A DNA stretch of 64,000 nucleotides from an uncultured Chloroflexia bacterium (GTDB taxonomy: Bacteria; Chloroflexota; Limnocylindria; Limnocylindrales; CSP1-4), in assembly GCA_963707215.1 (NCBI GenBank), contig CAVPPB010000003.1, positions 1,312,001-1,376,000 on the forward strand, written 5' to 3'. Under the pieces are notes generated by a model. The model was not told the DNA's origin. It made no database searches and worked only from the letters and a program-made list of their open reading frames with translations. A program made the position numbers and the translations under genes. Shown piece after piece: positions 2,476 to 54,449 of this stretch; position 1 is the first letter of the stretch; every line of letters begins with the position of its first letter.

Positions 2476-3731
2476 CGGTGCGCTCCCTCTCGGTCCCCGG
2501 GACCCGTGCCCGGCCCCGCGGAGGATAGCCCGTCCGCCGCGAGTCGCTCGACGAGGGCGAGGTATCGCTGGGACTCCCGCTCCCAGGCGAGCTCCGCGAC
2601 CAGGGCCTGCGTCCGGGCCACCCGGGCCTCCCTGTCCGCGACGTCGTCGGTCAGGGCGAGGATCGCCTCGGCGAGGTCGTCGGGGTCCCCAGGCCGATAG
2701 GTCCTGATCGTCCCGGGACCGAAGACGCGCTCGACCATCGGCAGGGCGGTCGCGACCACCGGCTTGCCCATCGCGGCGTACTCGAAGAGCTTCGTCGAGA
2801 GGCTGAAGTCCGTGAAGCCGTTCCGACGAGTCGGCGCCAGCCCGATGTCGGCCGCAGCGATCGCCGCTGGCACGGCCTCGATAGGGACCCGCCCGTGGAA
2901 GACCACACGATCGGCGACGCCGAGAGCCCTGGCGGCGCCGGCGAGGTCGGCCTCGCCGTAGTCGCGGCCGTACAGTTCGAGTGTCGGGTCCAGCTCCGGC
3001 CGGGCTGCGACGACGGCGGCGACGGCGGCGATCGCCACGTCGAGCTCGTAGATCGGCGACAGGGCGCCGGCGTACACGAGCCGGAGCCGGCCATCGGCCA
3101 TGAAGGAGCGGCTCGCCGCGATGCCGGGGTCGAAGCGGGACAAGGCCGGGCTGTTCCGGACGACGGTGACCTTCGATGGCGGCGCGCCGAGGACCACGAG
3201 CCGGTCGGCGAGGGCCTCGTTCACGGTCAGCACGGCCGAGGCGACCGCGATCGCAGCGCGTTCCTGGGCGACCAGCAGGGCATGGGCGAGCGGGTTGGAG
3301 GCCCGCGGGAAGCGGATGCGAAAGAACTCCGGCATCGCCTCGTGGAGGTCCAGGACGAGCGGGACGCCGGCAAGGCGGACGGGCAGCGCAGCGAAGGCGA
3401 GGTAGTCGGGCAGCGAGTGGACCTGGACGAGCGCGTAGCGGTGACGACGATGGGCCCGCGCGAGCGCCCAGCCCGCCCGCAGGAAGAAGTCCCCGTACTC
3501 GGTCAGGTAGCGGGGCAGACCGGCGCCCTGGTGTCGCTGGACGTCGAGGCGGATGACGCGGACGCCGTCGAGCCGGTCGACGGCCGGGTCGCCCGGACGA
3601 CGCAGGGCGAAGACGTCGACCGGCCGGCCGGCGGCGACGAGCGCCTCGGCCTCGCGGCGGACCCGGGGATCCTCCTCGTAGTACGAGTGGGCGAGCATGG
3701 CGACGGGCCGTCGCCGGCGGTCCTCGGCCAC
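2472..3731 (-). CDS. Glycosyltransferase family 4
   Basis: C-terminal part of ORF 2472..4790, GTG start at 3731 inferred. DPRVRREAEAL, LDLHE, STKLFEYAAMGKPVV (GT-B/GT4). Confidence 0.88.
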   Translation of the reverse strand: MAEDRRRRPVAMLAHSYYEEDPRVRREAEALVAAGRPVDVFALRRPGDPAVDRLDGVRVIRLDVQRHQGAGLPRYLTEYGDFFLRAGWALARAHRRHRYALVQVHSLPDYLAFAALPVRLAGVPLVLDLHEAMPEFFRIRFPRASNPLAHALLVAQERAAIAVASAVLTVNEALADRLVVLGAPPSKVTVVRNSPALSRFDPGIAASRSFMADGRLRLVYAGALSPIYELDVAIAAVAAVVAARPELDPTLELYGRDYGEADLAGAARALGVADRVVFHGRVPIEAVPAAIAAADIGLAPTRRNGFTDFSLSTKLFEYAAMGKPVVATALPMVERVFGPGTIRTYRPGDPDDLAEAILALTDDVADREARVARTQALVAELAWERESQRYLALVERLAADGLSSAGPGTGPGDREGAHR

Positions 3732-3739
3732 CTCGCTGC

Positions 3740-5041
3740 TCAGCGTCCCCGACCGCGGCCGGCGAGACGCGCCCGGAACCGGCGCAGCGGCCGCTTGACC
3801 GGTTCGGGCAGGAACGTCCGCAGCCGGTCGCCGGGGGTGGGGGCGACCGCTCCGGTCACCGGACCGAGTGACGGCAGTCCGAGCCGGGCACGCAGCTCCT
3901 CCTCGCGGAGCCGGGTCCTGGCAAGCTCGTTCTGGGACCGGGCGAGCTGGGTCTCCAGGCGCTCGATCCGGCGGGCGGGCTCGAGACTGAGCCAGTCGGG
4001 GAACGCGCGGACGGCCACCGGCGGGTGATCGGCCTCGTACGCGGCCACGAGCTGCCTCGCGATGACCGGCGCGTCGTGGATCCCGGCGACGTACGAGCGG
4101 CCACGGGACGCCAGTCCACGACGCAGCTCGCGGTCCGTGAGCAGGGTCGTCATCCGCTCGTCGAACGTGTCCGGATCGAGCGCCCAGACGGGCGCTGCCG
4201 GGAAGGCGTCGAGGGCCTGCGGCCCGACGTTGGCGACGGCGACGCGATTGGCCGCCATCGCCTCGATCGAGACGACCTCGTAGTCGCCGGTCAGGACGTT
4301 GTCGATGACCACGTCGGCATCGGCGATCGCCCGCATCGCCTCGTCGTGCGGGACCCCCTCGAGGAGTCGACGCTCGAAGGGCAGCCCGGCCGCTGCCAGG
4401 CGGTCCAGGCCGGCGAGGATCAGGTCGGTGCCCTTGGTGCCCCGCCTCGAAGGGACGTGGAGGACGACCGGCACGTCGCGCTGGGCGGGCGGTTGCTCCG
4501 GCCACGCCGCGAGATCGATCGCCCTGGGTAGGACCTCGGCCTCCGGGACGAAGTGGCGGTAGTCGACGGAGGTGACGAAAAGCCGATCCGCATAGGTGCG
4601 ACAGACCTCGATGACCTTCTCCGTCCGATCGTCGTCCGCCTCGATGTCGCTGAACCTGTAGTAGCTCCAGGGGTTGACCTGCTCGTGGATCCGGCGGATC
4701 CGGATGTCGGTGCCGTGGAAGGTGAAGAAGACCTTCTTGCCGAGGATGCGGTAGATCGGCAGGTCCCAGAACGGCGGCAGCCCGCCCCACTGGTTCGGGA
4801 ACAGCGTCCGGGCGAAGTGGAAGTGCAGGACATCGAACCGATCGATGGCCTCGAGGAAGGTCCGCCAGAAGACCGTCGGATCGCGGGTCTCCCGATCGAG
4901 TGAGATGGTCCGGTCCACCTCGAAGCCGAACGGGTTCGCGTCGTACTCCCAGACCTCGGCCTCGTGGCCCATGGCCCGCAGGGCCCGGACGACGATCGCC
5001 GGCTGGTCGGCGATGTTCCGGGCGGCGTGGAGGATCCGCAT
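3740..5041 (-). CDS. Glycosyltransferase (GT-B fold) with C-terminal coiled coil
   Basis: MRILH..., FDVLHFHF, FHGTDIR, HVPSRRGTKGT, ADVVIDN, VSIEAMA. Confidence 0.8.
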   Translation of the reverse strand: MRILHAARNIADQPAIVVRALRAMGHEAEVWEYDANPFGFEVDRTISLDRETRDPTVFWRTFLEAIDRFDVLHFHFARTLFPNQWGGLPPFWDLPIYRILGKKVFFTFHGTDIRIRRIHEQVNPWSYYRFSDIEADDDRTEKVIEVCRTYADRLFVTSVDYRHFVPEAEVLPRAIDLAAWPEQPPAQRDVPVVLHVPSRRGTKGTDLILAGLDRLAAAGLPFERRLLEGVPHDEAMRAIADADVVIDNVLTGDYEVVSIEAMAANRVAVANVGPQALDAFPAAPVWALDPDTFDERMTTLLTDRELRRGLASRGRSYVAGIHDAPVIARQLVAAYEADHPPVAVRAFPDWLSLEPARRIERLETQLARSQNELARTRLREEELRARLGLPSLGPVTGAVAPTPGDRLRTFLPEPVKRPLRRFRARLAGRGRGR

Positions 5042-46964: not shown

Positions 46965-47587
46965 CAGTCGCTTGCCGCGGCGACCGCGGGCGGTCCGTTC
47001 GACGATGCCGCCGCCAGCCGGGACTCGATCGCCTCGAGCTGCTCCAGGTGCATGAGGTCGTGGACGCCGGCGAAGAGGAGCCACTCGCCGCAGCGCAGCC
47101 GACCCACCAGCGGATGATCAAGCGGGCACGGGTCGGTCTCGTGGCCGGCCACCGAGCGGGCGGCCCGGGTGACGATCCGCTGGCTCGTCGCGAGGTGGGC
47201 GAGGATCGAGGCCCGGTCGGCATCGGCCCGGCCCGGCACACCGGGGACGACCGTCGGGGCCTCGGCCGGGAAGCGGCCCTGGGCGGCCAGTGAGGCGGCC
47301 ATCGCCAGGCCGGCCCGGGCGTCGGCGTCGTGGCCGAGCGCCTCGGTGACGCTCCAGTCCGCCTCGCCGCCCGGCAGCCCGAACGCCTCGTCCGGCAGCG
47401 CCTCGACGACCTCGGCCAGGGCCTGGGCCACGGCGGCGAGCTGGCCGGCCAAGCCCGGCGCGGTCCCCTCCCCCGCCCGGCGGCGGACCTCGCGCCGGAG
47501 TCCGATCGGTCGACCCTCCTCGAGCGCCCGCCAGCAGGCCACGACGTCCGGGGCCGTCGACTCGAGAGCCGCCATCCGGTCGTTCAT
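46964..47587 (-). CDS. DinB family protein
   Basis: WSVTEALGH, HPLVG, HDLMHLEQL His triad pattern. Confidence 0.82.
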   Translation of the reverse strand: MNDRMAALESTAPDVVACWRALEEGRPIGLRREVRRRAGEGTAPGLAGQLAAVAQALAEVVEALPDEAFGLPGGEADWSVTEALGHDADARAGLAMAASLAAQGRFPAEAPTVVPGVPGRADADRASILAHLATSQRIVTRAARSVAGHETDPCPLDHPLVGRLRCGEWLLFAGVHDLMHLEQLEAIESRLAAASSNGPPAVAAASD

Positions 47588-47593
47588 GGCTCC

Positions 47594-47665
47594 AGCCTAC
47601 GCGAGCCCGTCGGGGCACGTGAGGGCCGGTCGGCATCGGACGGCGGGCGCGGCCCGGGTGATAAT
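47594..47665. promoter_or_regulatory. Divergent -10 boxes for the DinB-family gene and the four-gene operon
   Basis: TAGGCT on the minus strand (47594-47599) 6 nt before ATG 47587; GATAAT on the plus strand (47660-47665) 9 nt before ATG 47675. Confidence 0.55.
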
Positions 47666-47674
47666 CCCGGCACG

Positions 47675-48517
47675 ATGTCGAGCGAGCCGTTCCGCTACCC
47701 GGACCTCATGGGCCGACTTCGCAGCGAGGGGCTCGTGCGGGTCTTCACCCACGGGCGCGGCGGCCCGCTGACCTTCCTGCTCGTGCTGGGGACCGGCATC
47801 CTGGCCGTCCCGCTGTCGGCGCCGTTGCTCGCCGTCGCCTACGCGGCAGCCTGCGCCCTCCTCTACATCCCCATCGTTCGCGGGGCGATGACGGACCCGG
47901 CCATCCAGCGGGAGCTCCTGACCCAGGCGATCGCCGAGCGCTTCCCGGCCGACGACATCGCCACCCCATCACGTCGGTCGGCCGTCGAGTCGTCGGTGGG
48001 GATCCTGGCCGAGATCGCCCTGCGCATCCACGAGGTCGAGCGTGGCGGGCCCACGGCTGCCCGGGCGCGTGCCGCGTTCGCCGATGCCGCCGGCCTGGTG
48101 GACCTCCAGCGCGAGTCGGCCCTCCAGGCGGAATCGCTCGAGCGCGTGCTGGCCATCGTCGAGCGCAACGACCCCGCGGACGCGGCGTCTACCCGAGGGA
48201 AGGCGGACGCGGAGACCGCGTCGCCGGCCCAGCGGCTGCGCCAGCAGAACATCGATGCCGTGCGTGGGGAGGCCACAGCCGCCGACGAGCTCATCGTGAC
48301 CATCGGCCAGCGCCTGGAGACCATCCTCCTCCAGACGTCGCAGATCGACCGGGAGACCATCGACATCGTGCGAACCGACGAAGCTGTCCGCGAATCGGGC
48401 GAGGCCGTGCAGCGCCTCCAGGACGTCGTGGAGTCGCGGCGTCGCGCCGCCGACCGCCTCATCTCGGTGCTCGGCACCGAGGACGAGGCCGGCACCCTCG
48501 ATCGGGTCGGGTCGTGA
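47675..48517 (+). CDS. Hypothetical protein with two TM helices and a long helical/coiled-coil domain (first gene of the four-gene operon)
   Basis: ATG 47675 lies 9 nt after GATAAT. Hydrophobic LTFLLVLGTGILAV and LLAVAYAAACALLYIPIV are followed by E/R/A/Q-rich helices. Confidence 0.8.
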   Translation: MSSEPFRYPDLMGRLRSEGLVRVFTHGRGGPLTFLLVLGTGILAVPLSAPLLAVAYAAACALLYIPIVRGAMTDPAIQRELLTQAIAERFPADDIATPSRRSAVESSVGILAEIALRIHEVERGGPTAARARAAFADAAGLVDLQRESALQAESLERVLAIVERNDPADAASTRGKADAETASPAQRLRQQNIDAVRGEATAADELIVTIGQRLETILLQTSQIDRETIDIVRTDEAVRESGEAVQRLQDVVESRRRAADRLISVLGTEDEAGTLDRVGS

Positions 48518-48545
48518 CGACCCGCTCCAGCGAAAGGACGGACCC

Positions 48546-50345
48546 ATGAACCGGAACCGCTCCCTGTGGATCTGGGGTGCCGCGATCCTGCTGGTCATCT
48601 TCGTCTTCGCCGCCGTGATCGGCCGGCTGGTGGATTCGGCCGACGTCGGCGAGCCCGGGGCGACCGATGGCGCTGCCGCGAGCAGCGGCCCGACGACCCC
48701 GCCGAACGCCGTCGGCATCTCGATCGTCAGCTCAAACACCAAGGAGGCCTGGCTGCACCAGGCCGTCGAGGCCTTCAATGCCGCGGCGCCCGGCGACCCG
48801 GACCTCCAGGTGGACGGCAAGCCGATCTTCGTGACCATCGTCCAGGAGGAGGTCGACGGCAAGGTCGCCGACTACCGCTCGGGCACCATGGTCGCCGACA
48901 CCCTGAGCGGCAAGATCGAGCCGACGATCCTGTCGCCGGGCGAGGAATCCTGGGTCCAGAAGTTCGAGCGCGACTGGGAGAGCGCCAAGGGCGGCGACCC
49001 GGTCTCCGAGGCCCAGCCGCCGATCCTCGTCCGGACCCCGCTCGTCGTCGCCATGTGGCAGTCCCGCGCCGAGGCGCTGGGCTGCTGGCCGACCCCCGGC
49101 CCGGACTGCACCTGGGCCCGCCTCGGCGCCCTGGCCAGCGATCCGGAAGGCTGGGGCTCGGTCGGCGAACCCCAGTGGAAGAAGTTCAAGTTCGGCTACG
49201 GCTACTTCGGCGAGTCCAACTCGGGCACGCTGGCGACCGTGGCCATGTGCATGACCGCCCTGGGCAAGACCGAGGGACTCGTCGTCGCCGACGTCAGCTC
49301 CGACAACGCCTGCGGTGAGTTCATCCACGAGATCGAGAAGGCCAAGGTCCACAGCGGCAAGTCGGACGTCTTCCTGCTCGACCAGATGGAGACCGGCGGG
49401 CCCGAGTACCTCGACGGGGTCGTGACCTACGAGTCGAACGTCATCGCCCGCAACCGGGCGGTCGGCGACCAGCTGCGCGAGCCGCTCGTCTCGTTCTACC
49501 CGCAGGACGGCACCGTCGTCGTCGGGCACCCCTTCGCCATCCTCGACGGCGCTCCCTGGGTCAGCGACGAGCAGGCCCGGGCCGCCCAGGCCTTCGGCGA
49601 CTACCTGCTCTCGGACGAGCAGCAGCGGGCGGTCCTGGAGCTCGGGCTCCGGCCGGCCGACGCCGACACGGCCCTGGGCTCGCCGATCGAGCTCGGCAAC
49701 GGCGCCAACCCCGAGGCGACGCTGCTCGCCTTGACGTTGCCGGACACGCTGACGATCGAGCGCGTCGGCGAGGCCTGGCAGGACGTCCGCAAGCATGCGG
49801 TCATCGCCATCGTCTTCGACAAGTCGGGAAGCATGTCGGGCGGCAAGATCACCGCCGCCGTGAAGGGCGCCCAGGAGTTCGTCCGCAAGATGAGCCCCCA
49901 GGACGAGCTGCTCTGGATCCCCTTCGACGAGCAGGTCTACCCGGGCGTCCGGGGCACCAAGGCGGCGGTCGGCGAGGACCTCATCGGGGACATCGCGGCG
50001 ACCGTCGCCGACGGCGGGACGGCCCTCTACGACGCCATCCTGCTGGCTCGCGACGAGCTCGAGGAGCGTCGGTCGGAGACGGGCGATACGGTACGCTACG
50101 GCATCGTGGTGCTCTCCGACGGACAGGACCAGAACAGCGTCCGGACCCTGTCCGAGCTGGAGTCGGCCCTGGCCACCACCGAGGCGGACCCGACCGGCAT
50201 CCAGATCCACACCATCGGCATCGGCGAGGACGCGGACACGCCGACGCTGAAGAAGATCGCCCAGGCCGCCCACGGGCGGTTCTGGCAGCCGAAGAGCGAG
50301 GCGGACGTGGTCACCGTCTACAAGGACATCGCCGCGTACTTCTAG
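48546..50345 (+). CDS. Membrane-anchored extracellular solute-binding-like protein fused to a C-terminal vWA domain
   Basis: AAAGGA RBS, N-terminal TM, SBP-like motifs (TPLVVAMW, SNSG, YES, YPQDGT...HP, FGDYL), MIDAS DKSGS...GGTALYD...LSDG, IHTIGIG. Confidence 0.9.
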   Translation: MNRNRSLWIWGAAILLVIFVFAAVIGRLVDSADVGEPGATDGAAASSGPTTPPNAVGISIVSSNTKEAWLHQAVEAFNAAAPGDPDLQVDGKPIFVTIVQEEVDGKVADYRSGTMVADTLSGKIEPTILSPGEESWVQKFERDWESAKGGDPVSEAQPPILVRTPLVVAMWQSRAEALGCWPTPGPDCTWARLGALASDPEGWGSVGEPQWKKFKFGYGYFGESNSGTLATVAMCMTALGKTEGLVVADVSSDNACGEFIHEIEKAKVHSGKSDVFLLDQMETGGPEYLDGVVTYESNVIARNRAVGDQLREPLVSFYPQDGTVVVGHPFAILDGAPWVSDEQARAAQAFGDYLLSDEQQRAVLELGLRPADADTALGSPIELGNGANPEATLLALTLPDTLTIERVGEAWQDVRKHAVIAIVFDKSGSMSGGKITAAVKGAQEFVRKMSPQDELLWIPFDEQVYPGVRGTKAAVGEDLIGDIAATVADGGTALYDAILLARDELEERRSETGDTVRYGIVVLSDGQDQNSVRTLSELESALATTEADPTGIQIHTIGIGEDADTPTLKKIAQAAHGRFWQPKSEADVVTVYKDIAAYF

Positions 50346-50360
50346 GACATCGTCCGGCCG

Positions 50361-50380
50361 CCGGGCGGGTCGCCGCCCGG
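50361..50380 (+). other. Intra-operon GC-rich stem-loop
   Basis: CCGGGCGG-GTCG-CCGCCCGG, a perfect 8-bp stem with no U-tract. Confidence 0.45.
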
Positions 50381-50409
50381 ACGTCGGGCGCAGGAGCTGA
50401 GGGACGGGC

Positions 50410-51273
50410 ATGGGACGCTTCTTCGCCGCCATCCGGCGCTGGTTCGACTACTTCTTCCTGCGTCGCAGCGAGGACGTCCGCAACGCCGCCGATCGGCAGT
50501 TCACCGGCTCCGTGGAGGGCATCCAGGCGGCCTACGCGGTCGACCGTGACCGGCTCTCCAAGGACTTCCGCAGCCTCCAGGAGGCGGTCGCCCAGGTCCT
50601 GACGATCGCCGAGGACAAGAAGATCCAGCTCGAGCGGCTCGGCACCGAGGAGGGGCAGCTCCAGCTCCAGCTCAACGGGGCCATCAACGCCGCCGAGAAG
50701 GCCCAGGCCGACGGCGACGCCGACGGCTTCGCCCAGGCCAAGGCCGCCTATGTCCGCTACCAGGCCCGGATGACCCAGATCGACGCCGACCAGGAGCGCC
50801 TGACCACCGAGGTGGGGAACCTCGAGGCGAGCATGAAGACCCACATGTCCCGCCTGACCGCCTTCCAGGCGGAGCTTGACCGGCTGCCCCGCGAGGAGGC
50901 CGAGACGATCGCCGAGTACGTCTCGGCCAAGCAGGTCATCGAGCTCAACAACCGCCTGATGAACGCCTACGACAGCCTCCAGGAAGGGCCGTCGAGCGTC
51001 GTCCGGGCGGAGGTTCGGAAGATGTCCGCCCAGGCCCGGATCACCGAGCAGCTCGCCGGCACCGACGTCAAGCTGCAGGACCAGCAGTACGCTCAGCTGG
51101 GTCGGGAGCTCGCTGGCGAGGATTCGCTCGAGGCCGTGCTGGCCGCCCGGCGAGCCGAGCGGGAGGGGCCGACCGCCGAGGCGGTCGCCGAGCGGGAGGC
51201 ACCCGCGGTCGATGCGGCCCCGCCGGCCGATGCCGCGGACGGACCGCCACCGCCCGAGCGCCCCCGGATCTGA
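50410..51273 (+). CDS. Divergent PspA/IM30 (ESCRT-III superfamily)-like coiled-coil protein
   Basis: Amphipathic N-terminus MGRFFAAIRRWFDYFF, long heptad-rich helical hairpin with turn near AEKAQADGDADGFAQA, short C-terminal helices and a Pro/Ala/acidic tail. Architecture recognised by eye. Confidence 0.72.
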   Translation: MGRFFAAIRRWFDYFFLRRSEDVRNAADRQFTGSVEGIQAAYAVDRDRLSKDFRSLQEAVAQVLTIAEDKKIQLERLGTEEGQLQLQLNGAINAAEKAQADGDADGFAQAKAAYVRYQARMTQIDADQERLTTEVGNLEASMKTHMSRLTAFQAELDRLPREEAETIAEYVSAKQVIELNNRLMNAYDSLQEGPSSVVRAEVRKMSAQARITEQLAGTDVKLQDQQYAQLGRELAGEDSLEAVLAARRAEREGPTAEAVAEREAPAVDAAPPADAADGPPPPERPRI

Positions 51274-51296
51274 CGGCACCCGGACCGACGATCCGC

Positions 51297-53132
51297 GTGG
51301 CCGGCAAGCAGGCAGGCCGAGGCAGCGACGAGCGCCGTCCCGGCTTCATCGAGGAGCTCTCGCGGGCCCACTACGCTCGCCTGGCCCGCTGCATCGTCCT
51401 CAGCGGCAACACCAACGACCTCTTCCCCGTCGGGCCGGCCGATGCTTCGCGCTACGTCAGCCTGGAGGCCGTCCTGGCCGATGCCTTCGGGCGAGCCCGC
51501 TACCCGCGCCGCGGCGGCGAGGTCCCGTTCGTCGTCCTGACGCTCAAGGCCGGCGGCATCGTCTTCGCCAGCGACGCGGACCGGGCGGCCATCGCGGCCA
51601 TCGGCACGGCCGCCGGCGATCGCCATCCCGGGCTGGCACGGGACGTCGCCACGTTCCTGCGCGAGGTCACCAGGGAGCGGGCCGCGTCGCTCGTCACCCT
51701 CACCCTGGTCGCCGAGCTGATGCGGCTCGTCAGCCGGGCTCGCGAGGCCGGCATCCCGGTCCGCCCGGTCGCCGCGATCATCGACCACGCCGAGGCGCTG
51801 CTGCCGGCCGGTGACCTGGCCCGCCTCGCCCCGGTCGACCGCGAGGCCATCACGATCTTCAGCGACCTGCTGCGCGACGACGCGATCTGGGCCGAGGCCG
51901 CGACGGCCGATGCCTACCCCGACGTCGTCCTGCTCATCGCCCCGACCGTCGCCGAGCTCTCGACGCGCATCGCCGAGCTGCCCAAGACGGCCCGGGTCGA
52001 GGTCCCTCGACCCGACGAAGCGCTCCGGCGGTCATTCGTCGACGACCGGTTGGCCGCGCTCGGGCCGGGCGTGGCCGGGCTCGGCGAGGACTACCCGGTG
52101 GAGGGGCTCGTTCGGGACGCCAAGGGCCTGACGCTGCGCGACCTCGACGACCTGCTCACCGCCGCCCAGCGCTCGCCCGAGCAGTTCCGGATCGACCGCG
52201 ACGCAGTCGTCGCCATCGTCAACCGCACCCTCCAGGAGCGGCTCGGCTCGATCATCACGGTGGTCTACCCGGAGCACTCGATGGCCGACGTGGTCGGCTT
52301 CGCTGCCCTGAAGCGGCGCCTCGGCAGGCTCCGCCGCCGCTTCGACGATCCGGAGCGAGCGCCGGCCGGCATCACCGTCGTGGGTCCCAACGGCGCCGGC
52401 AAGACGTTCATCCTGGAGGCCTTCGCCCGGGACACCGACCGCACGGTCATCACCCTCGGCCAGATCCGCTCGGAGTGGTACGGCCGGACCGACGTCTTCG
52501 CCGAGGCCTTCAGCTCGGGCCTGGCAGCCTTCGGCCGGATCCTCGTCGTCGTCGACGAGGCCCACGTCGCGTTCGGCTCGATGCATGACCGCCAGACCCA
52601 CGAGACCGAGGCACGGCTGGCCAGCCACATGATCCGGATGATCGACGACCTGCCGAACCGCAGCCGGATCGTCTGGGCTCTCATCACGACCCGGCCGGAC
52701 CTGCTGGACCCGGACTTCGTTCGCGCCGGCCGCTGTTCCCTGTTCGTCCCCATCTTCGACCCGGAAGGCGACGATGCGTCCGCCTTCGTCGACCTGATGG
52801 CCGGGCGGCTCCTGCGCAGCGGGGTCCGCCTGACCCCGGAGGAGCGCGCCCTCCTCGAGGAGCGGTCGGCCGGCTTCTCGGCCGGCGACTACCGGGAGTT
52901 CGCCGACGACTTCGCCGACGAGCGCGATTTCGACCCTGGCGTCTCGCTGGCTACCTACCTCGACGGCTGGACGCCGAGCTCGGTCGCCCTGGGTGTCCAG
53001 CGCGAGCTCCAGATCCTCCTCGCCGCGCTGCACTGCGACTGGCCGGAACTCCTGCCGGAGCGGCTGCGGGGCCGCTCGAAGGCGGCCATCCAGGAAGGGA
53101 TCGACCGGCTGCGGAGCGTGCTGGCGCCCTGA
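51297..53132 (+). CDS. Classical-clade AAA+ ATPase with a degenerate N-terminal AAA-like domain
   Basis: Walker A GPNGAGKT, pore loop IRSEWYG, Walker B LVVVDE, SRH TTRPDLLDPDFVRAGR, GFSAGD. The N-half has IVLSGNTND and IIDHAE remnants. Confidence 0.9.
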   Translation: MAGKQAGRGSDERRPGFIEELSRAHYARLARCIVLSGNTNDLFPVGPADASRYVSLEAVLADAFGRARYPRRGGEVPFVVLTLKAGGIVFASDADRAAIAAIGTAAGDRHPGLARDVATFLREVTRERAASLVTLTLVAELMRLVSRAREAGIPVRPVAAIIDHAEALLPAGDLARLAPVDREAITIFSDLLRDDAIWAEAATADAYPDVVLLIAPTVAELSTRIAELPKTARVEVPRPDEALRRSFVDDRLAALGPGVAGLGEDYPVEGLVRDAKGLTLRDLDDLLTAAQRSPEQFRIDRDAVVAIVNRTLQERLGSIITVVYPEHSMADVVGFAALKRRLGRLRRRFDDPERAPAGITVVGPNGAGKTFILEAFARDTDRTVITLGQIRSEWYGRTDVFAEAFSSGLAAFGRILVVVDEAHVAFGSMHDRQTHETEARLASHMIRMIDDLPNRSRIVWALITTRPDLLDPDFVRAGRCSLFVPIFDPEGDDASAFVDLMAGRLLRSGVRLTPEERALLEERSAGFSAGDYREFADDFADERDFDPGVSLATYLDGWTPSSVALGVQRELQILLAALHCDWPELLPERLRGRSKAAIQEGIDRLRSVLAP

Positions 53133-53141
53133 CGGGTCGGC

Positions 53142-54449
53142 TCAGCGGTTGCCGGACGCCATCCGCATGGCGTCAGGTCGCCGACGGAGACGCCACATCG
53201 CCACGATGCCGACGAGCGGTCCCAGGGCCAGGGCCGAGAAGGCGACCTGCCAGCCGCCCGCGTCGGCCGGCGCGATCGCCCCGACCGCCAGGATCGTCAC
53301 GGCGGTGAGCACGAAGCCGCTGGCGACCTGGACCTGGAGCGCCGAGCCGGCGGTCCCGGGCGGGGCCAGCTCAGAGACGGCAGCCGAGAACTGGGCCGAG
53401 TCGGCGACGACCGTGACGCCCCAGACCATGGCCAGGGCGACGACGAGCCAGGGCGACGCACCGAAGGACAGTCCGACCAGGAGCGCGCAGGAGCCGCTGA
53501 CCGCCATCGCCACGATGGTGGCCGTCGTCCGGCCGAACCGGTCGGCGAAGAGGCCTGCCCCGACGCAGCCGATCGCCCCGGCGGCCATGACGGCGAACGC
53601 GGCGAGCGACGCCAGGGCCGCGTCGTCGTTCCCGGCCGCCGTCAGCGACGCGGCCAGGAAGAGGGGGATCCAGGTCCACATCGCGAAGAGCTCCCACATG
53701 TGGCCCAGGTAGCCCACGTTGGCGAGGCGCACCGATGGCTGGCGGAACGCCGCTGCCGCGATCCGGATGCTGAAGCGCGGCGCCGACGTGTCGAACGGTC
53801 CCGGCCGACCACCGGCCAGCACCAGCCCGCCGCCCAGGAAGGTGGCGACCGAGGCGAAGGCCACCACCGCCCGCCAGTCCACGTCGGCGAGCGCGCCCAC
53901 GGCCCGGAAGAGATGCGGCATCGCCGAGCCGACGGTGACGGCGGCGATGAGCACACCGATCGCGAGGCCGCGCTCGCGCCGGAACCAGCCGGCGATCAGC
54001 TTCATCCCGACCGGGTAGACGGCGGCCAGGGCGGCGCCGGTTATCGCCCGGGCCGGGATCCCGGCCAGCGGCCCGTCGGCCAGCACGGCGAAGGCCAGGT
54101 TGGCGACCCCGGCGACGACGGCTCCGGCCGCAAAGAGGCGATCGCCGCGGATGACGTCCGTCGCGCCGCTGACCGCCAGGACGATGGCCCCGGCGGCGAA
54201 GCCGAGCTGGACGGCGACGACGAGCAGGGAGAGCTCGAAGGCCGATGCAGCCCACTCGCGCTCAAGCGACGGGGCCACGGCGGAGGAGCTGAACCAGGGC
54301 GACATCGCCAGGATCGTCCCGGCGGAGAGGACGGCCAGGGCGGCCCAGCGGCCCGGTGGATCGTCCGCAGGCACCGGACGGGCAGCCGTCTCCGGGGCGG
54401 GCGGAGGCCCGTGGATCGCTCCCGGATCAGCCGTCGGGCGGGACGCCAT
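53142..54449 (-). CDS. MFS transporter
   Basis: About 12 hydrophobic segments, VYPVGMK, GYLGHMWELFAMW, ADRFGR, ADSAQFSA. Confidence 0.9.
   Translation of the reverse strand: MASRPTADPGAIHGPPPAPETAARPVPADDPPGRWAALAVLSAGTILAMSPWFSSSAVAPSLEREWAASAFELSLLVVAVQLGFAAGAIVLAVSGATDVIRGDRLFAAGAVVAGVANLAFAVLADGPLAGIPARAITGAALAAVYPVGMKLIAGWFRRERGLAIGVLIAAVTVGSAMPHLFRAVGALADVDWRAVVAFASVATFLGGGLVLAGGRPGPFDTSAPRFSIRIAAAAFRQPSVRLANVGYLGHMWELFAMWTWIPLFLAASLTAAGNDDAALASLAAFAVMAAGAIGCVGAGLFADRFGRTTATIVAMAVSGSCALLVGLSFGASPWLVVALAMVWGVTVVADSAQFSAAVSELAPPGTAGSALQVQVASGFVLTAVTILAVGAIAPADAGGWQVAFSALALGPLVGIVAMWRLRRRPDAMRMASGNR

Follow-up and report, generated by a model that had tools for sequence, protein, structure and literature searches.

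A four-gene operon with a divergent PspA-like gene

We analysed a 64,000-nucleotide (nt) stretch of DNA, here called the window, from an uncultured Chloroflexia bacterium (GTDB lineage Limnocylindria, Limnocylindrales, CSP1-4; assembly GCA_963707215.1, contig CAVPPB010000003.1, positions 1,312,001 to 1,376,000 of the forward strand). Our subject is a gene at 50410..51273 that had been predicted from the sequence to encode a divergent PspA/ESCRT-III-like protein, and that is referred to below as the PspA-like gene. It is the third of four plus-strand genes separated by spacers of 28, 64 and 23 nt and flanked by minus-strand genes; the others encode a membrane protein, a protein with solute-binding protein (SBP) and vWA domains, and a tandem AAA ATPase. 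Its translation is the one quoted in the original prediction, and a Shine-Dalgarno-like site (GAGGGA) lies a few bases 5' of the ATG. The parts of the gene and of its predicted protein are listed here, with model confidence given as the predicted local distance difference test (pLDDT).

50410..51273, plus strand: divergent PspA/IM30-like gene, ATG start, 287 amino acids (aa)
50413..50505, plus strand: helix alpha0, residues 2-32, aromatic/basic and amphipathic (model, moment and composition)
50485-50511, plus strand: invariant F31-T32-x-S34 in AADRQFTGS, after alpha0 (alignment columns)
50512..50982, plus strand: helical hairpin of helices 35-101 and 104-191, pLDDT 92-98, equivalent to PspA alpha1 and alpha2/3(+4)
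50701-50724, plus strand: hairpin tip AQADGDAD, residues 98-105, with a helix break at residues 102-103
50989..51153, plus strand: helices 194-235 and 241-248, which align with the C-terminal helices of PspA (model, hhalign)
51166..51255, plus strand: disordered Pro/Ala/Glu/Asp-rich linker, residues 253-282, pLDDT <50, variable in length and sequence
51256..51270, plus strand: C-terminal peptide ERPRI, with the family motif [D/E]-R-P-x-[I/L] at the extreme end

An AlphaFold2 model computed from an alignment of 43 relatives had a mean pLDDT of 80.2, with blocks of residues 41-180 at 92-98. Helices were modelled at residues 2-32, 35-101, 104-191, 194-235 and 241-248, in agreement with the long continuous helix and further short helices that had been read from the sequence. 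Since AQADGDAD contains the helix break (residues 102-103), the hairpin turn is where the original prediction had put it. The C-tail described there as disordered is likewise so in the model, in which pLDDT was below 50 at residues 253-270, 272-280 and 283-287 and the chain is unstructured from residue 253. The aromatic amphipathic N-helix was also recovered: it has a hydrophobic moment of 0.53 (residues 1-18), seven aromatics in the first 30 residues and a net charge of +3, and this composition is kept in 43/43 aligned relatives (four to eight aromatics, net charge +1 to +8). Alpha0 is distinctive for its aromatic and basic composition, not for its moment, and is the presumed membrane anchor of the protein.

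Remote homology to the PspA/IM30 superfamily

Profile alignment, PF04012-matching relatives and a quick tree together support the placement of the PspA-like protein in the PspA/IM30 (ESCRT-III) superfamily, as a derived branch that is invisible to Pfam. For the profile alignment, we used a family profile (A1) of 43 sequences picked to span 35-89% identity, and compared it with canonical PspA sequences from Chloroflexota. PF04012 matches were present in 24 of 41 Chloroflexota genomes (a tally that includes genome G038, whose sequence was left unused), and 11 of the 12 loci returned were aligned. The hhalign comparison of A1 with these 11 sequences gave a probability of 73% (P = 3.1e-5, score 41.6, 179 columns), with query positions 56-255 lying over PspA 38-219 and the hairpin tips coinciding. 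The highest score among 31 controls (one reversed and 30 heptad-block-shuffled templates) was 22.6, and 0/31 reached 41.6. With relaxed settings, the two profiles were co-linear from alpha0 to the C-terminus and tail, except that ~18 extra residues, the region of the invariant F-T-G-S, separate alpha0 from alpha1 in the PspA-like family. The usual PspA 'EDP' motif had been reported as not recognisable, and the alignment agrees: there is no conserved E-D-P, and R-R-S-E-D-V of the window's clade sits under PspA R-A-E-D-P-E in a low-confidence part of the alignment.

Sequences intermediate between the two families were found among the relatives. We scanned 61 of 150 listed representatives against Pfam, hand-picked and mostly full-length proteins from the weaker half, and 18 of the 61 matched PF04012 at E <= 0.01. 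Two of them exceeded the curated cut-off of 33.9 bits (P0217 with 51.5 bits and P0219 with 51.8 bits), and each of these also matched the A1 profile at ~1e-27. A quick maximum-likelihood tree of 125 rows (114 family proteins, restricted to 235-300 aa, and 11 canonical PspA; midpoint-rooted, SH-aLRT support) placed canonical PspA on one side (support 100) and the PF04012-matching members in the grades nearest to it. The window protein falls in a clade of 74 rows (SH-aLRT 99) that holds all 42 rows with an R-P tail and zero PF04012 matches. The divergent PspA/ESCRT-III-like identity claimed at the outset is thus upheld as remote homology, and so is the suggestion of a distinct subfamily, which curated hidden Markov models (HMMs) miss and which forms a clade of its own in the tree.

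Several results weigh against this homology. Neither PspA_IM30 nor Snf7 matched the PspA-like protein in Pfam at E <= 1, and NCBIfam returned nothing relevant; PspA, Vipp1 and CHMP chains were unmatched at E <= 10 in protein and profile searches of PDB sequences, and the hhalign probability of 73% is not >95%. Because the window protein has no PF04012 or NCBIfam match and stands below the curated cut-off, it lies outside PF04012 as Pfam delimits that family. Of the HMM scoring proposed earlier, the direct part therefore found no match for the protein itself, and support came by way of its 18 matching relatives. The likeness to Snf7, whose HMM (PF03357) left the window protein unmatched at E <= 1, is only at the level of the fold, to the Snf7 and Shrub hairpins.

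The model used for structure searches contains the hairpin and the later helices. The top Foldseek match was Vipp1 (6zvr; E = 1.8e-3, TM-score 0.57 on the target), with 8qbw and 7o3w in the top ten, and chemoreceptors, SH3BP5 and the PI3K iSH2 followed close behind. VIA-align gave Z scores of 12.2 for PspA (4whe; root-mean-square deviation 2.7 over 122 residues), 12.2 for Snf7 (5fd9), 12.3 for Shrub and 11.6-11.9 for Vipp1; it also gave 13.0 for Tsr-HAMP and 12.6 for the dynein stalk, as high as the values for PspA, Snf7 and Vipp1, which is a further point on the opposing side. Across three structure searches, ESCRT-III proteins thus tied with unrelated hairpins. The earlier proposal to compare the model with PspA, Vipp1 and CHMP structures therefore did not discriminate: such proteins were among the best matches, and chemoreceptor, dynein-stalk and PI3K iSH2 hairpins matched equally well.

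These ties, the lack of curated HMM matches, weak Pfam noise to many coiled-coil families and the name 'chromosome segregation ATPase' given by JGI would all fit a generic coiled coil whose resemblance to PspA and ESCRT-III is compositional. We consider this very improbable, since the hhalign score is about twice the best of the 31 composition-preserving controls, the two families align co-linearly, tip to tip at the hairpin, PF04012 does match 18/61 relatives (two above cut-off), and the gene cassette agrees with one published for PspA in the available part of Ravi et al. (PMC11237479). The JGI name is a coiled-coil artefact, because the family proteins have no nucleoside triphosphatase (NTPase) motif. 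TelA and other coiled-coil families were considered separately: the best Pfam match was KIF9 (E = 0.048, 14 bits), and TelA, named beforehand as the alternative that would count against the PspA/ESCRT-III assignment, was absent at E <= 1. Matches in the PDB sequence and profile searches (Beclin, factor H binding protein) were set aside as coiled-coil noise. Taken with the cassette described below, the identity of the protein as a divergent relative of PspA is held with high confidence.

Family size and distribution

A word-indexed search in which 8000 candidates were scored found 130 relatives of the PspA-like protein at E <= 0.001, and the A1 profile matched 412 cluster representatives at E <= 0.001 (270 at E <= 1e-10) in a library clustered at 50% identity; with this many matches, the open reading frame (ORF) is not a chance one. 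None of the 120 listed relatives checked for precomputed Pfam domains carried one (0/120). Source names were inconsistent and included 'phage shock protein A', 'chromosome segregation ATPase' and, for one UniRef entry, 'PspA/IM30 family protein'. The second of these is the JGI name for most of the listed relatives.

The source genome (3.26 Mb, 5 contigs, estimated completeness 85%) holds the A1 family in single copy. PF04012 and PF03357 (the latter at E <= 0.01) had no match in it, and the PspA-like protein appears to be its only detectable member of the PspA/ESCRT-III superfamily. The one other genome of the same genus also has the A1 family. No member was detected in 23 further genera of the same taxonomic family, in 16 genomes of the same order or, with a threshold of E <= 1e-10, among 150 more sampled Chloroflexota genomes. 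The A1 family is nevertheless present in at least seven other phyla, and its cultured carriers include Sulfidibacter corallicola M133 and Acanthopleuribacter pedis KCTC 12899. This patchy distribution across many phyla suggests that the cassette is an accessory module that may have spread laterally.

A conserved gene cassette

The neighbouring genes of the operon and their main features are as follows (TM, transmembrane; D1 and D2, the first and second AAA domain of the ATPase; MIDAS, metal ion-dependent adhesion site).

47675..48517, plus strand: gene 1, 280-aa membrane protein, two TM helices and then a helical cytoplasmic part of ~210 aa
47768-47878, plus strand: two predicted TM helices, residues 32-68
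48546..50345, plus strand: gene 2, 599-aa SBP-vWA protein with an N-terminal TM and extracytoplasmic solute-binding and vWA domains
48564-48623, plus strand: predicted TM anchor of the SBP-vWA protein
49818-49835, plus strand: MIDAS-like motif DKSGSM in the vWA domain
51297..53132, plus strand: gene 4, 611-aa tandem classical AAA ATPase, 23 nt after the PspA-like stop
within 51333-51359, plus strand: invariant N-terminal R14-P15-x-F17 (alignment invariants)
51399-51425, plus strand: LSGNTNDLF at the P-loop place of the degenerate D1 (~residues 14-330; alignment)
52383-52406, plus strand: D2 Walker A, GPNGAGKT (motif)
52470-52484, plus strand: D2 pore loop, SEWYG (motif)
52545-52565, plus strand: D2 Walker B, VVVDEAH (motif)
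52686-52733, plus strand: D2 second region of homology, T-x-R-P-D ... R

We compared 45 related loci from Chloroflexota, Acidobacteriota, Fraserbacteria, KSB1, Planctomycetota, Victivallales, Sumerlaeota, a cyanobacterium and Myxococcales. A full-length homologue of the ATPase (31-88% identity) was present in 30 of these 45 loci from at least seven phyla, and 12 of the 15 loci in which it was missing have less than 4 kb of downstream sequence. A gene for a TM and helical protein stands upstream of the PspA-like gene in 36/45 loci and belongs either to a family that we call S_310 (31 loci) or to the type found in the window (5 loci). The usual order outside the window's clade is SBP-OmpA, a small vWA protein (PF00092 at 3.3e-10), an OmpA-domain protein, the two-TM helical protein (S_310), the PspA-like protein, an NMT1-type SBP, an ABC permease and ATPase, and the AAA ATPase; what recurs across loci is the TM-helical gene, the PspA-like gene, (SBP and ABC genes) and the AAA gene. 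The window operon is a compact version of this cassette: it has no OmpA or ABC parts, and its SBP and vWA domains share one protein.

The fused protein matched SBP_bac_11 (2.8e-10, residues 60-367) and VWA (5.5e-13, residues 420-586) in Pfam. That both domains occur in one chain suggests joint action outside the membrane. In the Sulfidibacter locus L010, SBP and vWA are separate, and a vWA protein of 273 aa (3219-4037) lies between the SBP-OmpA and OmpA-domain genes.

The 280-aa membrane protein is a candidate membrane partner of the PspA-like protein. It has 23 relatives at E <= 0.001 and belongs to no Pfam or NCBIfam family. For S_310, a profile (A2) was made from 23 of the 31 ORFs, eight having been dropped for stops, N or over-long frames. 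Neither family of membrane partner matched anything in Pfam (E <= 1) or in a PDB profile search, and hhalign comparisons among S_310, the window 280-aa protein, PspA and A1 were not significant (best score 27.1, within noise). The sole named lead for both families in a protein atlas was a cluster partly annotated as Rv2743c (12% and 40% of members); Rv2743c is PspM, the membrane partner of mycobacterial PspA, and an example of S_310 lies at L010:5897-6826. S_310 also carries a short acidic-Tyr motif after its last helix, with Y298 in >=90% of 23 sequences, so that this protein may contribute a second tagged tail to the cassette.

A scan of 47400-53400 found no promoters and no terminators. The 64-nt spacer before the PspA-like gene contains a GC-only hairpin of 8 bp with a 4-nt loop (50361-50380), which has no T run, is not called a terminator and may be due to chance in DNA of 72% G+C. 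Among public sequencing runs, no RNA run is listed as carrying the operon, and the best DNA runs carry <=0.26 of its words.

A cassette of this kind is already known from genome comparisons. In the parts available of Ravi et al. 2024 (mSystems, PMC11237479; supplement Text S2.2 and Table S3 rows OGG56892.1, AEY64321.1 and AKJ06548.1), bacterial PspA genes are catalogued beside a protein with two AAA+ domains, the N-terminal one inactive, together with TM+Snf7, PBPB(+OmpA) and ABC parts. The window shares the defining pair, a PspA-superfamily gene adjacent, with a 23-nt spacer, to a classical AAA protein with one inactive and one active domain, as well as a membrane-anchored helical protein, a periplasmic solute-binding component and an occurrence across many phyla; its acidobacterial and other relatives (e.g., L010) have the full set, with OmpA proteins and an ABC ATPase. 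It differs in that its PspA-like protein is unrecognised by PF04012, in that its four genes lack OmpA and ABC parts and fuse SBP to vWA, and in a gene order unlike that of the example row consulted in the supplement (PMC11237479). With regard to the 'TM+Snf7' partner of Ravi et al., the TM and helical gene is present, and Snf7 homology was undetected by Pfam, PDB profile search and hhalign. We found no experimental work on the bacterial pairing of PspA with a tandem AAA protein in full-text literature searches, subscription journals being outside their coverage.

An unfoldase-like tandem AAA ATPase

The ATPase matched the Pfam AAA family at residues 360-482 (2.7e-14). In its alignment, D2 has an invariant Walker A (GPNGxGKT), an invariant Walker B (DEAH), an aromatic-aromatic-Gly pore loop and an invariant pore-loop glycine and arginine, and it looks active by these motifs; D1 has neither P-loop nor Walker B. 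Profile search against the PDB returned AFG2/Drg1, VAT, p97, NSF, Msp1, fidgetin-like 1 and spastin, over D2 only, and an internal duplication was weakly visible by hhalign (score 29.5, D1 lid region against D2 lid). The AlphaFold2 model (pLDDT 86, predicted TM-score 0.81) matched N-terminally deleted Rix7, p97 D1D2, NVL and Cdc48 over ~600 columns in Foldseek, with E down to 8e-18. The D2 motifs and the full-length fold match thus point to a tandem Cdc48/p97-like build.

Two closer identities were rejected. Vps4 is contradicted by the two AAA folds, the absence of an MIT domain and a score of 25.6 bits against a cut-off of 650 for NCBIfam CdvC, and a Cdc48 orthologue by a score of 42 bits against a cut-off of 803 for NCBIfam CDC48, a D1 without Walker A or B and the absence of the N domain. 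Judged from its motifs and model, the protein is best described as a Cdc48/p97-like tandem classical AAA ATPase that lacks an N domain and is an orthologue of neither Vps4 nor Cdc48.

The nature of the ATPase bears on the role of its neighbour. Unfoldase-type translocases typically grip a flexible tail with a terminal tag. The PspA-like protein could instead be a regulator or adaptor of the ATPase and not its substrate, in the way that E. coli PspA binds and inhibits PspF, with other envelope or membrane proteins as the substrates. Regulation of PspF by PspA is established, according to the accessible part of a 2025 review, the association of PspA with AAA+ proteins is partly read by Ravi et al. 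(PMC11237479, in the text available) as chaperone-like assembly of membrane complexes, and the cassette is rich in envelope proteins (SBP, vWA, OmpA-domain, ABC transporter). PspF, however, belongs to the NtrC-type enhancer-binding AAA+ proteins and has a DNA-binding domain, whereas the window ATPase is a classical tandem AAA with an aromatic pore loop whose nearest relatives are the unfoldases AFG2, VAT, p97 and Msp1, and translocases of this type would be expected to act on a tagged flexible tail. We therefore regard a mainly regulatory role as improbable.

A near-invariant peptide at the end of a variable tail

In the 43-sequence alignment, the tail of the PspA-like protein ends in a conserved peptide (R284 in 98%, P285 in 95%, with I (77%) or L at the final position), and the linker before it has a column entropy of 2-3 bits and low occupancy. 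Among ORFs from related loci, 32/44 have an end of the type R-P-x-[I/L], and several of the 12 exceptions are truncated or frame-broken; among full-length family proteins, 138/226 end in R-[P/A]-x-[I/L/V/M], the others being variants such as E-R-E-K-I. Since the terminal peptide is conserved while the linker is variable, it is a candidate docking or recognition tag. The available text of Ravi et al. 2024 makes no mention of a conserved C-terminal peptide.

The ATPase has an invariant N-terminal R-P-x-F...L (R14, P15, F17 and L21 in 27 sequences) that resembles the R-P-x-[I/L] of the tail; this likeness could be due to chance, or could reflect one shared binding site.

The original prediction also proposed that the neighbouring ATPase uses the tail as its handle, an idea that we hold tentatively, at a little under even chances. 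The conserved peptide and the conserved gene linkage are compatible with it. C-terminal regions autoinhibit eukaryotic ESCRT-III, and the peptide might, in a different reading, dock elsewhere, for instance on the cytoplasmic domain of the upstream membrane protein, or fold back to autoinhibit the hairpin, with the ATPase engaging otherwise. The TM-helical gene, upstream in 36/45 loci, is at least as constant as the ATPase linkage, the ATPase model lacks a distinct N domain for peptide binding, and ESCRT-III C-terminal domains modulate polymer dynamics, as stated in the part of the 2025 review that was consulted. Yet no similarity could be detected between the two upstream membrane families, and the same tail motif occurs in both cassette forms, across which the ATPase is kept at 31-88% full-length identity. 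Docking elsewhere or folding back is thus, in our view, unlikely.

Comparison with known systems

The window protein resembles canonical PspA, Vipp1 (IM30) and LiaH in having alpha0, the alpha1-alpha2/3 hairpin, an A-x-x-A-x-x-x-G-like tip, a similar length and later helices that are co-linear by hhalign. It differs from them in a much more aromatic alpha0, the ~18-residue insert with F-T-G-S, and a proline-rich tail that ends in R-P-x-[I/L], with no conserved E-D-P. Canonical PspA is linked to PspBC/PspF or LiaI or stands alone, whereas the window type is linked to a classical tandem AAA.

With archaeal and eukaryotic ESCRT-III and Vps4, the window pair has in common a helical-hairpin protein, a flexible C-tail that bears a motif and an adjacent gene for a classical-clade AAA protein; the logic by which a motor grips the tail and dismantles the polymer is presumed to be shared. 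In contrast to Vps4, the ATPase has a tandem D1-D2 arrangement, no MIT domain and a fold closest to Rix7, p97 and Cdc48. The MIT-interacting motif (MIM) of ESCRT-III is a helical motif; the window protein has a terminal R-P-x-[I/L] in its place and no Snf7 HMM match. Tails recognised by other AAA+ machines, such as the HbYX of proteasome activators and ssrA-type degrons, are similar in placing a few conserved residues at the extreme end of a flexible segment. The sequence of the window tail is different from these, and it is a candidate tag only.

The nearest archaeal parallel to the window pair is found in haloarchaeal loci which, in the part of Makarova et al. available, have a weakly PspA-like gene upstream of a Vps4-like ATPase without MIT; methanogen loci with the solute-binding protein ProX are described there too. 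For bacteria, the consulted part of the 2025 review states that a Vps4-like ATPase 'appears absent in bacteria'.

A proposed mechanism and its implications

The analysis shows that the protein belongs to the superfamily by remote homology, that its cassette is conserved, how the ATPase is built and that the tail ends in a conserved peptide; from these findings we infer the functional steps of a mechanism. The PspA-like protein would attach to the cytoplasmic membrane from the inside by means of its aromatic and basic alpha0, and the helical hairpin would drive polymerisation, by analogy with PspA and Vipp1. The extracytoplasmic SBP-vWA protein and the membrane-anchored helical protein may couple this polymer to the envelope, and the Cdc48/p97-like AAA protein, with its degenerate D1, its presumably active D2 and its aromatic pore loop, would remodel or disassemble it. 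The motor would most likely thread the flexible tail, recognised by its [D/E]-R-P-x-[I/L] end, and so strip or remodel subunits. A membrane-binding PspA-like polymer within a four-gene module, served by a tail-engaging AAA protein, is the best explanation that we can offer, and we favour it slightly.

Some observations count against this mechanism. The moment of alpha0 is matched elsewhere in the PspA-like protein, with a maximum of 0.61 near residue 47, as expected because the protein is a coiled coil. The model of the ATPase contains no MIT or other N domain able to read a tail. Three loci (L019, L029 and L031) have no ATPase although their sequence extends 6.9 kb or more downstream. Nearly every member of the core subfamily carries the tail motif, and most of the loci that lack it are truncated or frame-broken; the motif cannot for this reason be correlated with the presence of the ATPase.

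A bolder reading would make the cassette a true functional counterpart of ESCRT-III and Vps4 in many phyla, in which the tag, as the equivalent of a MIM, recruits the AAA protein to pull subunits off the polymer, an outside trigger arrives via SBP-vWA and the helical receptor, and the R-P-x-F of the ATPase could compete with the tag as a brake. We regard this extension as speculative and rather doubtful.

The PspA and tandem-AAA kind of system was known before, from the 2024 genome comparisons as far as their available text describes it (PMC11237479). What is new is a Pfam-invisible subfamily, a near-invariant R-P-x-[I/L] end on a variable linker, and a compact operon of four genes in which SBP and vWA form one protein. 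A sizeable branch of the superfamily, amounting to 412 clusters at 50% identity, escapes curated HMMs, and surveys based on PF04012 therefore undercount it. The reading of the protein as a PspA/ESCRT-III relative is supported by remote homology, and that of its tail as a handle is plausible. The cassette pairs a PspA-derived protein with a motor of its own, of the unfoldase type, in many phyla, and a five-residue C-terminal tag on a floppy linker would offer a concrete, mutable element for the idea that the motor grips the tail.

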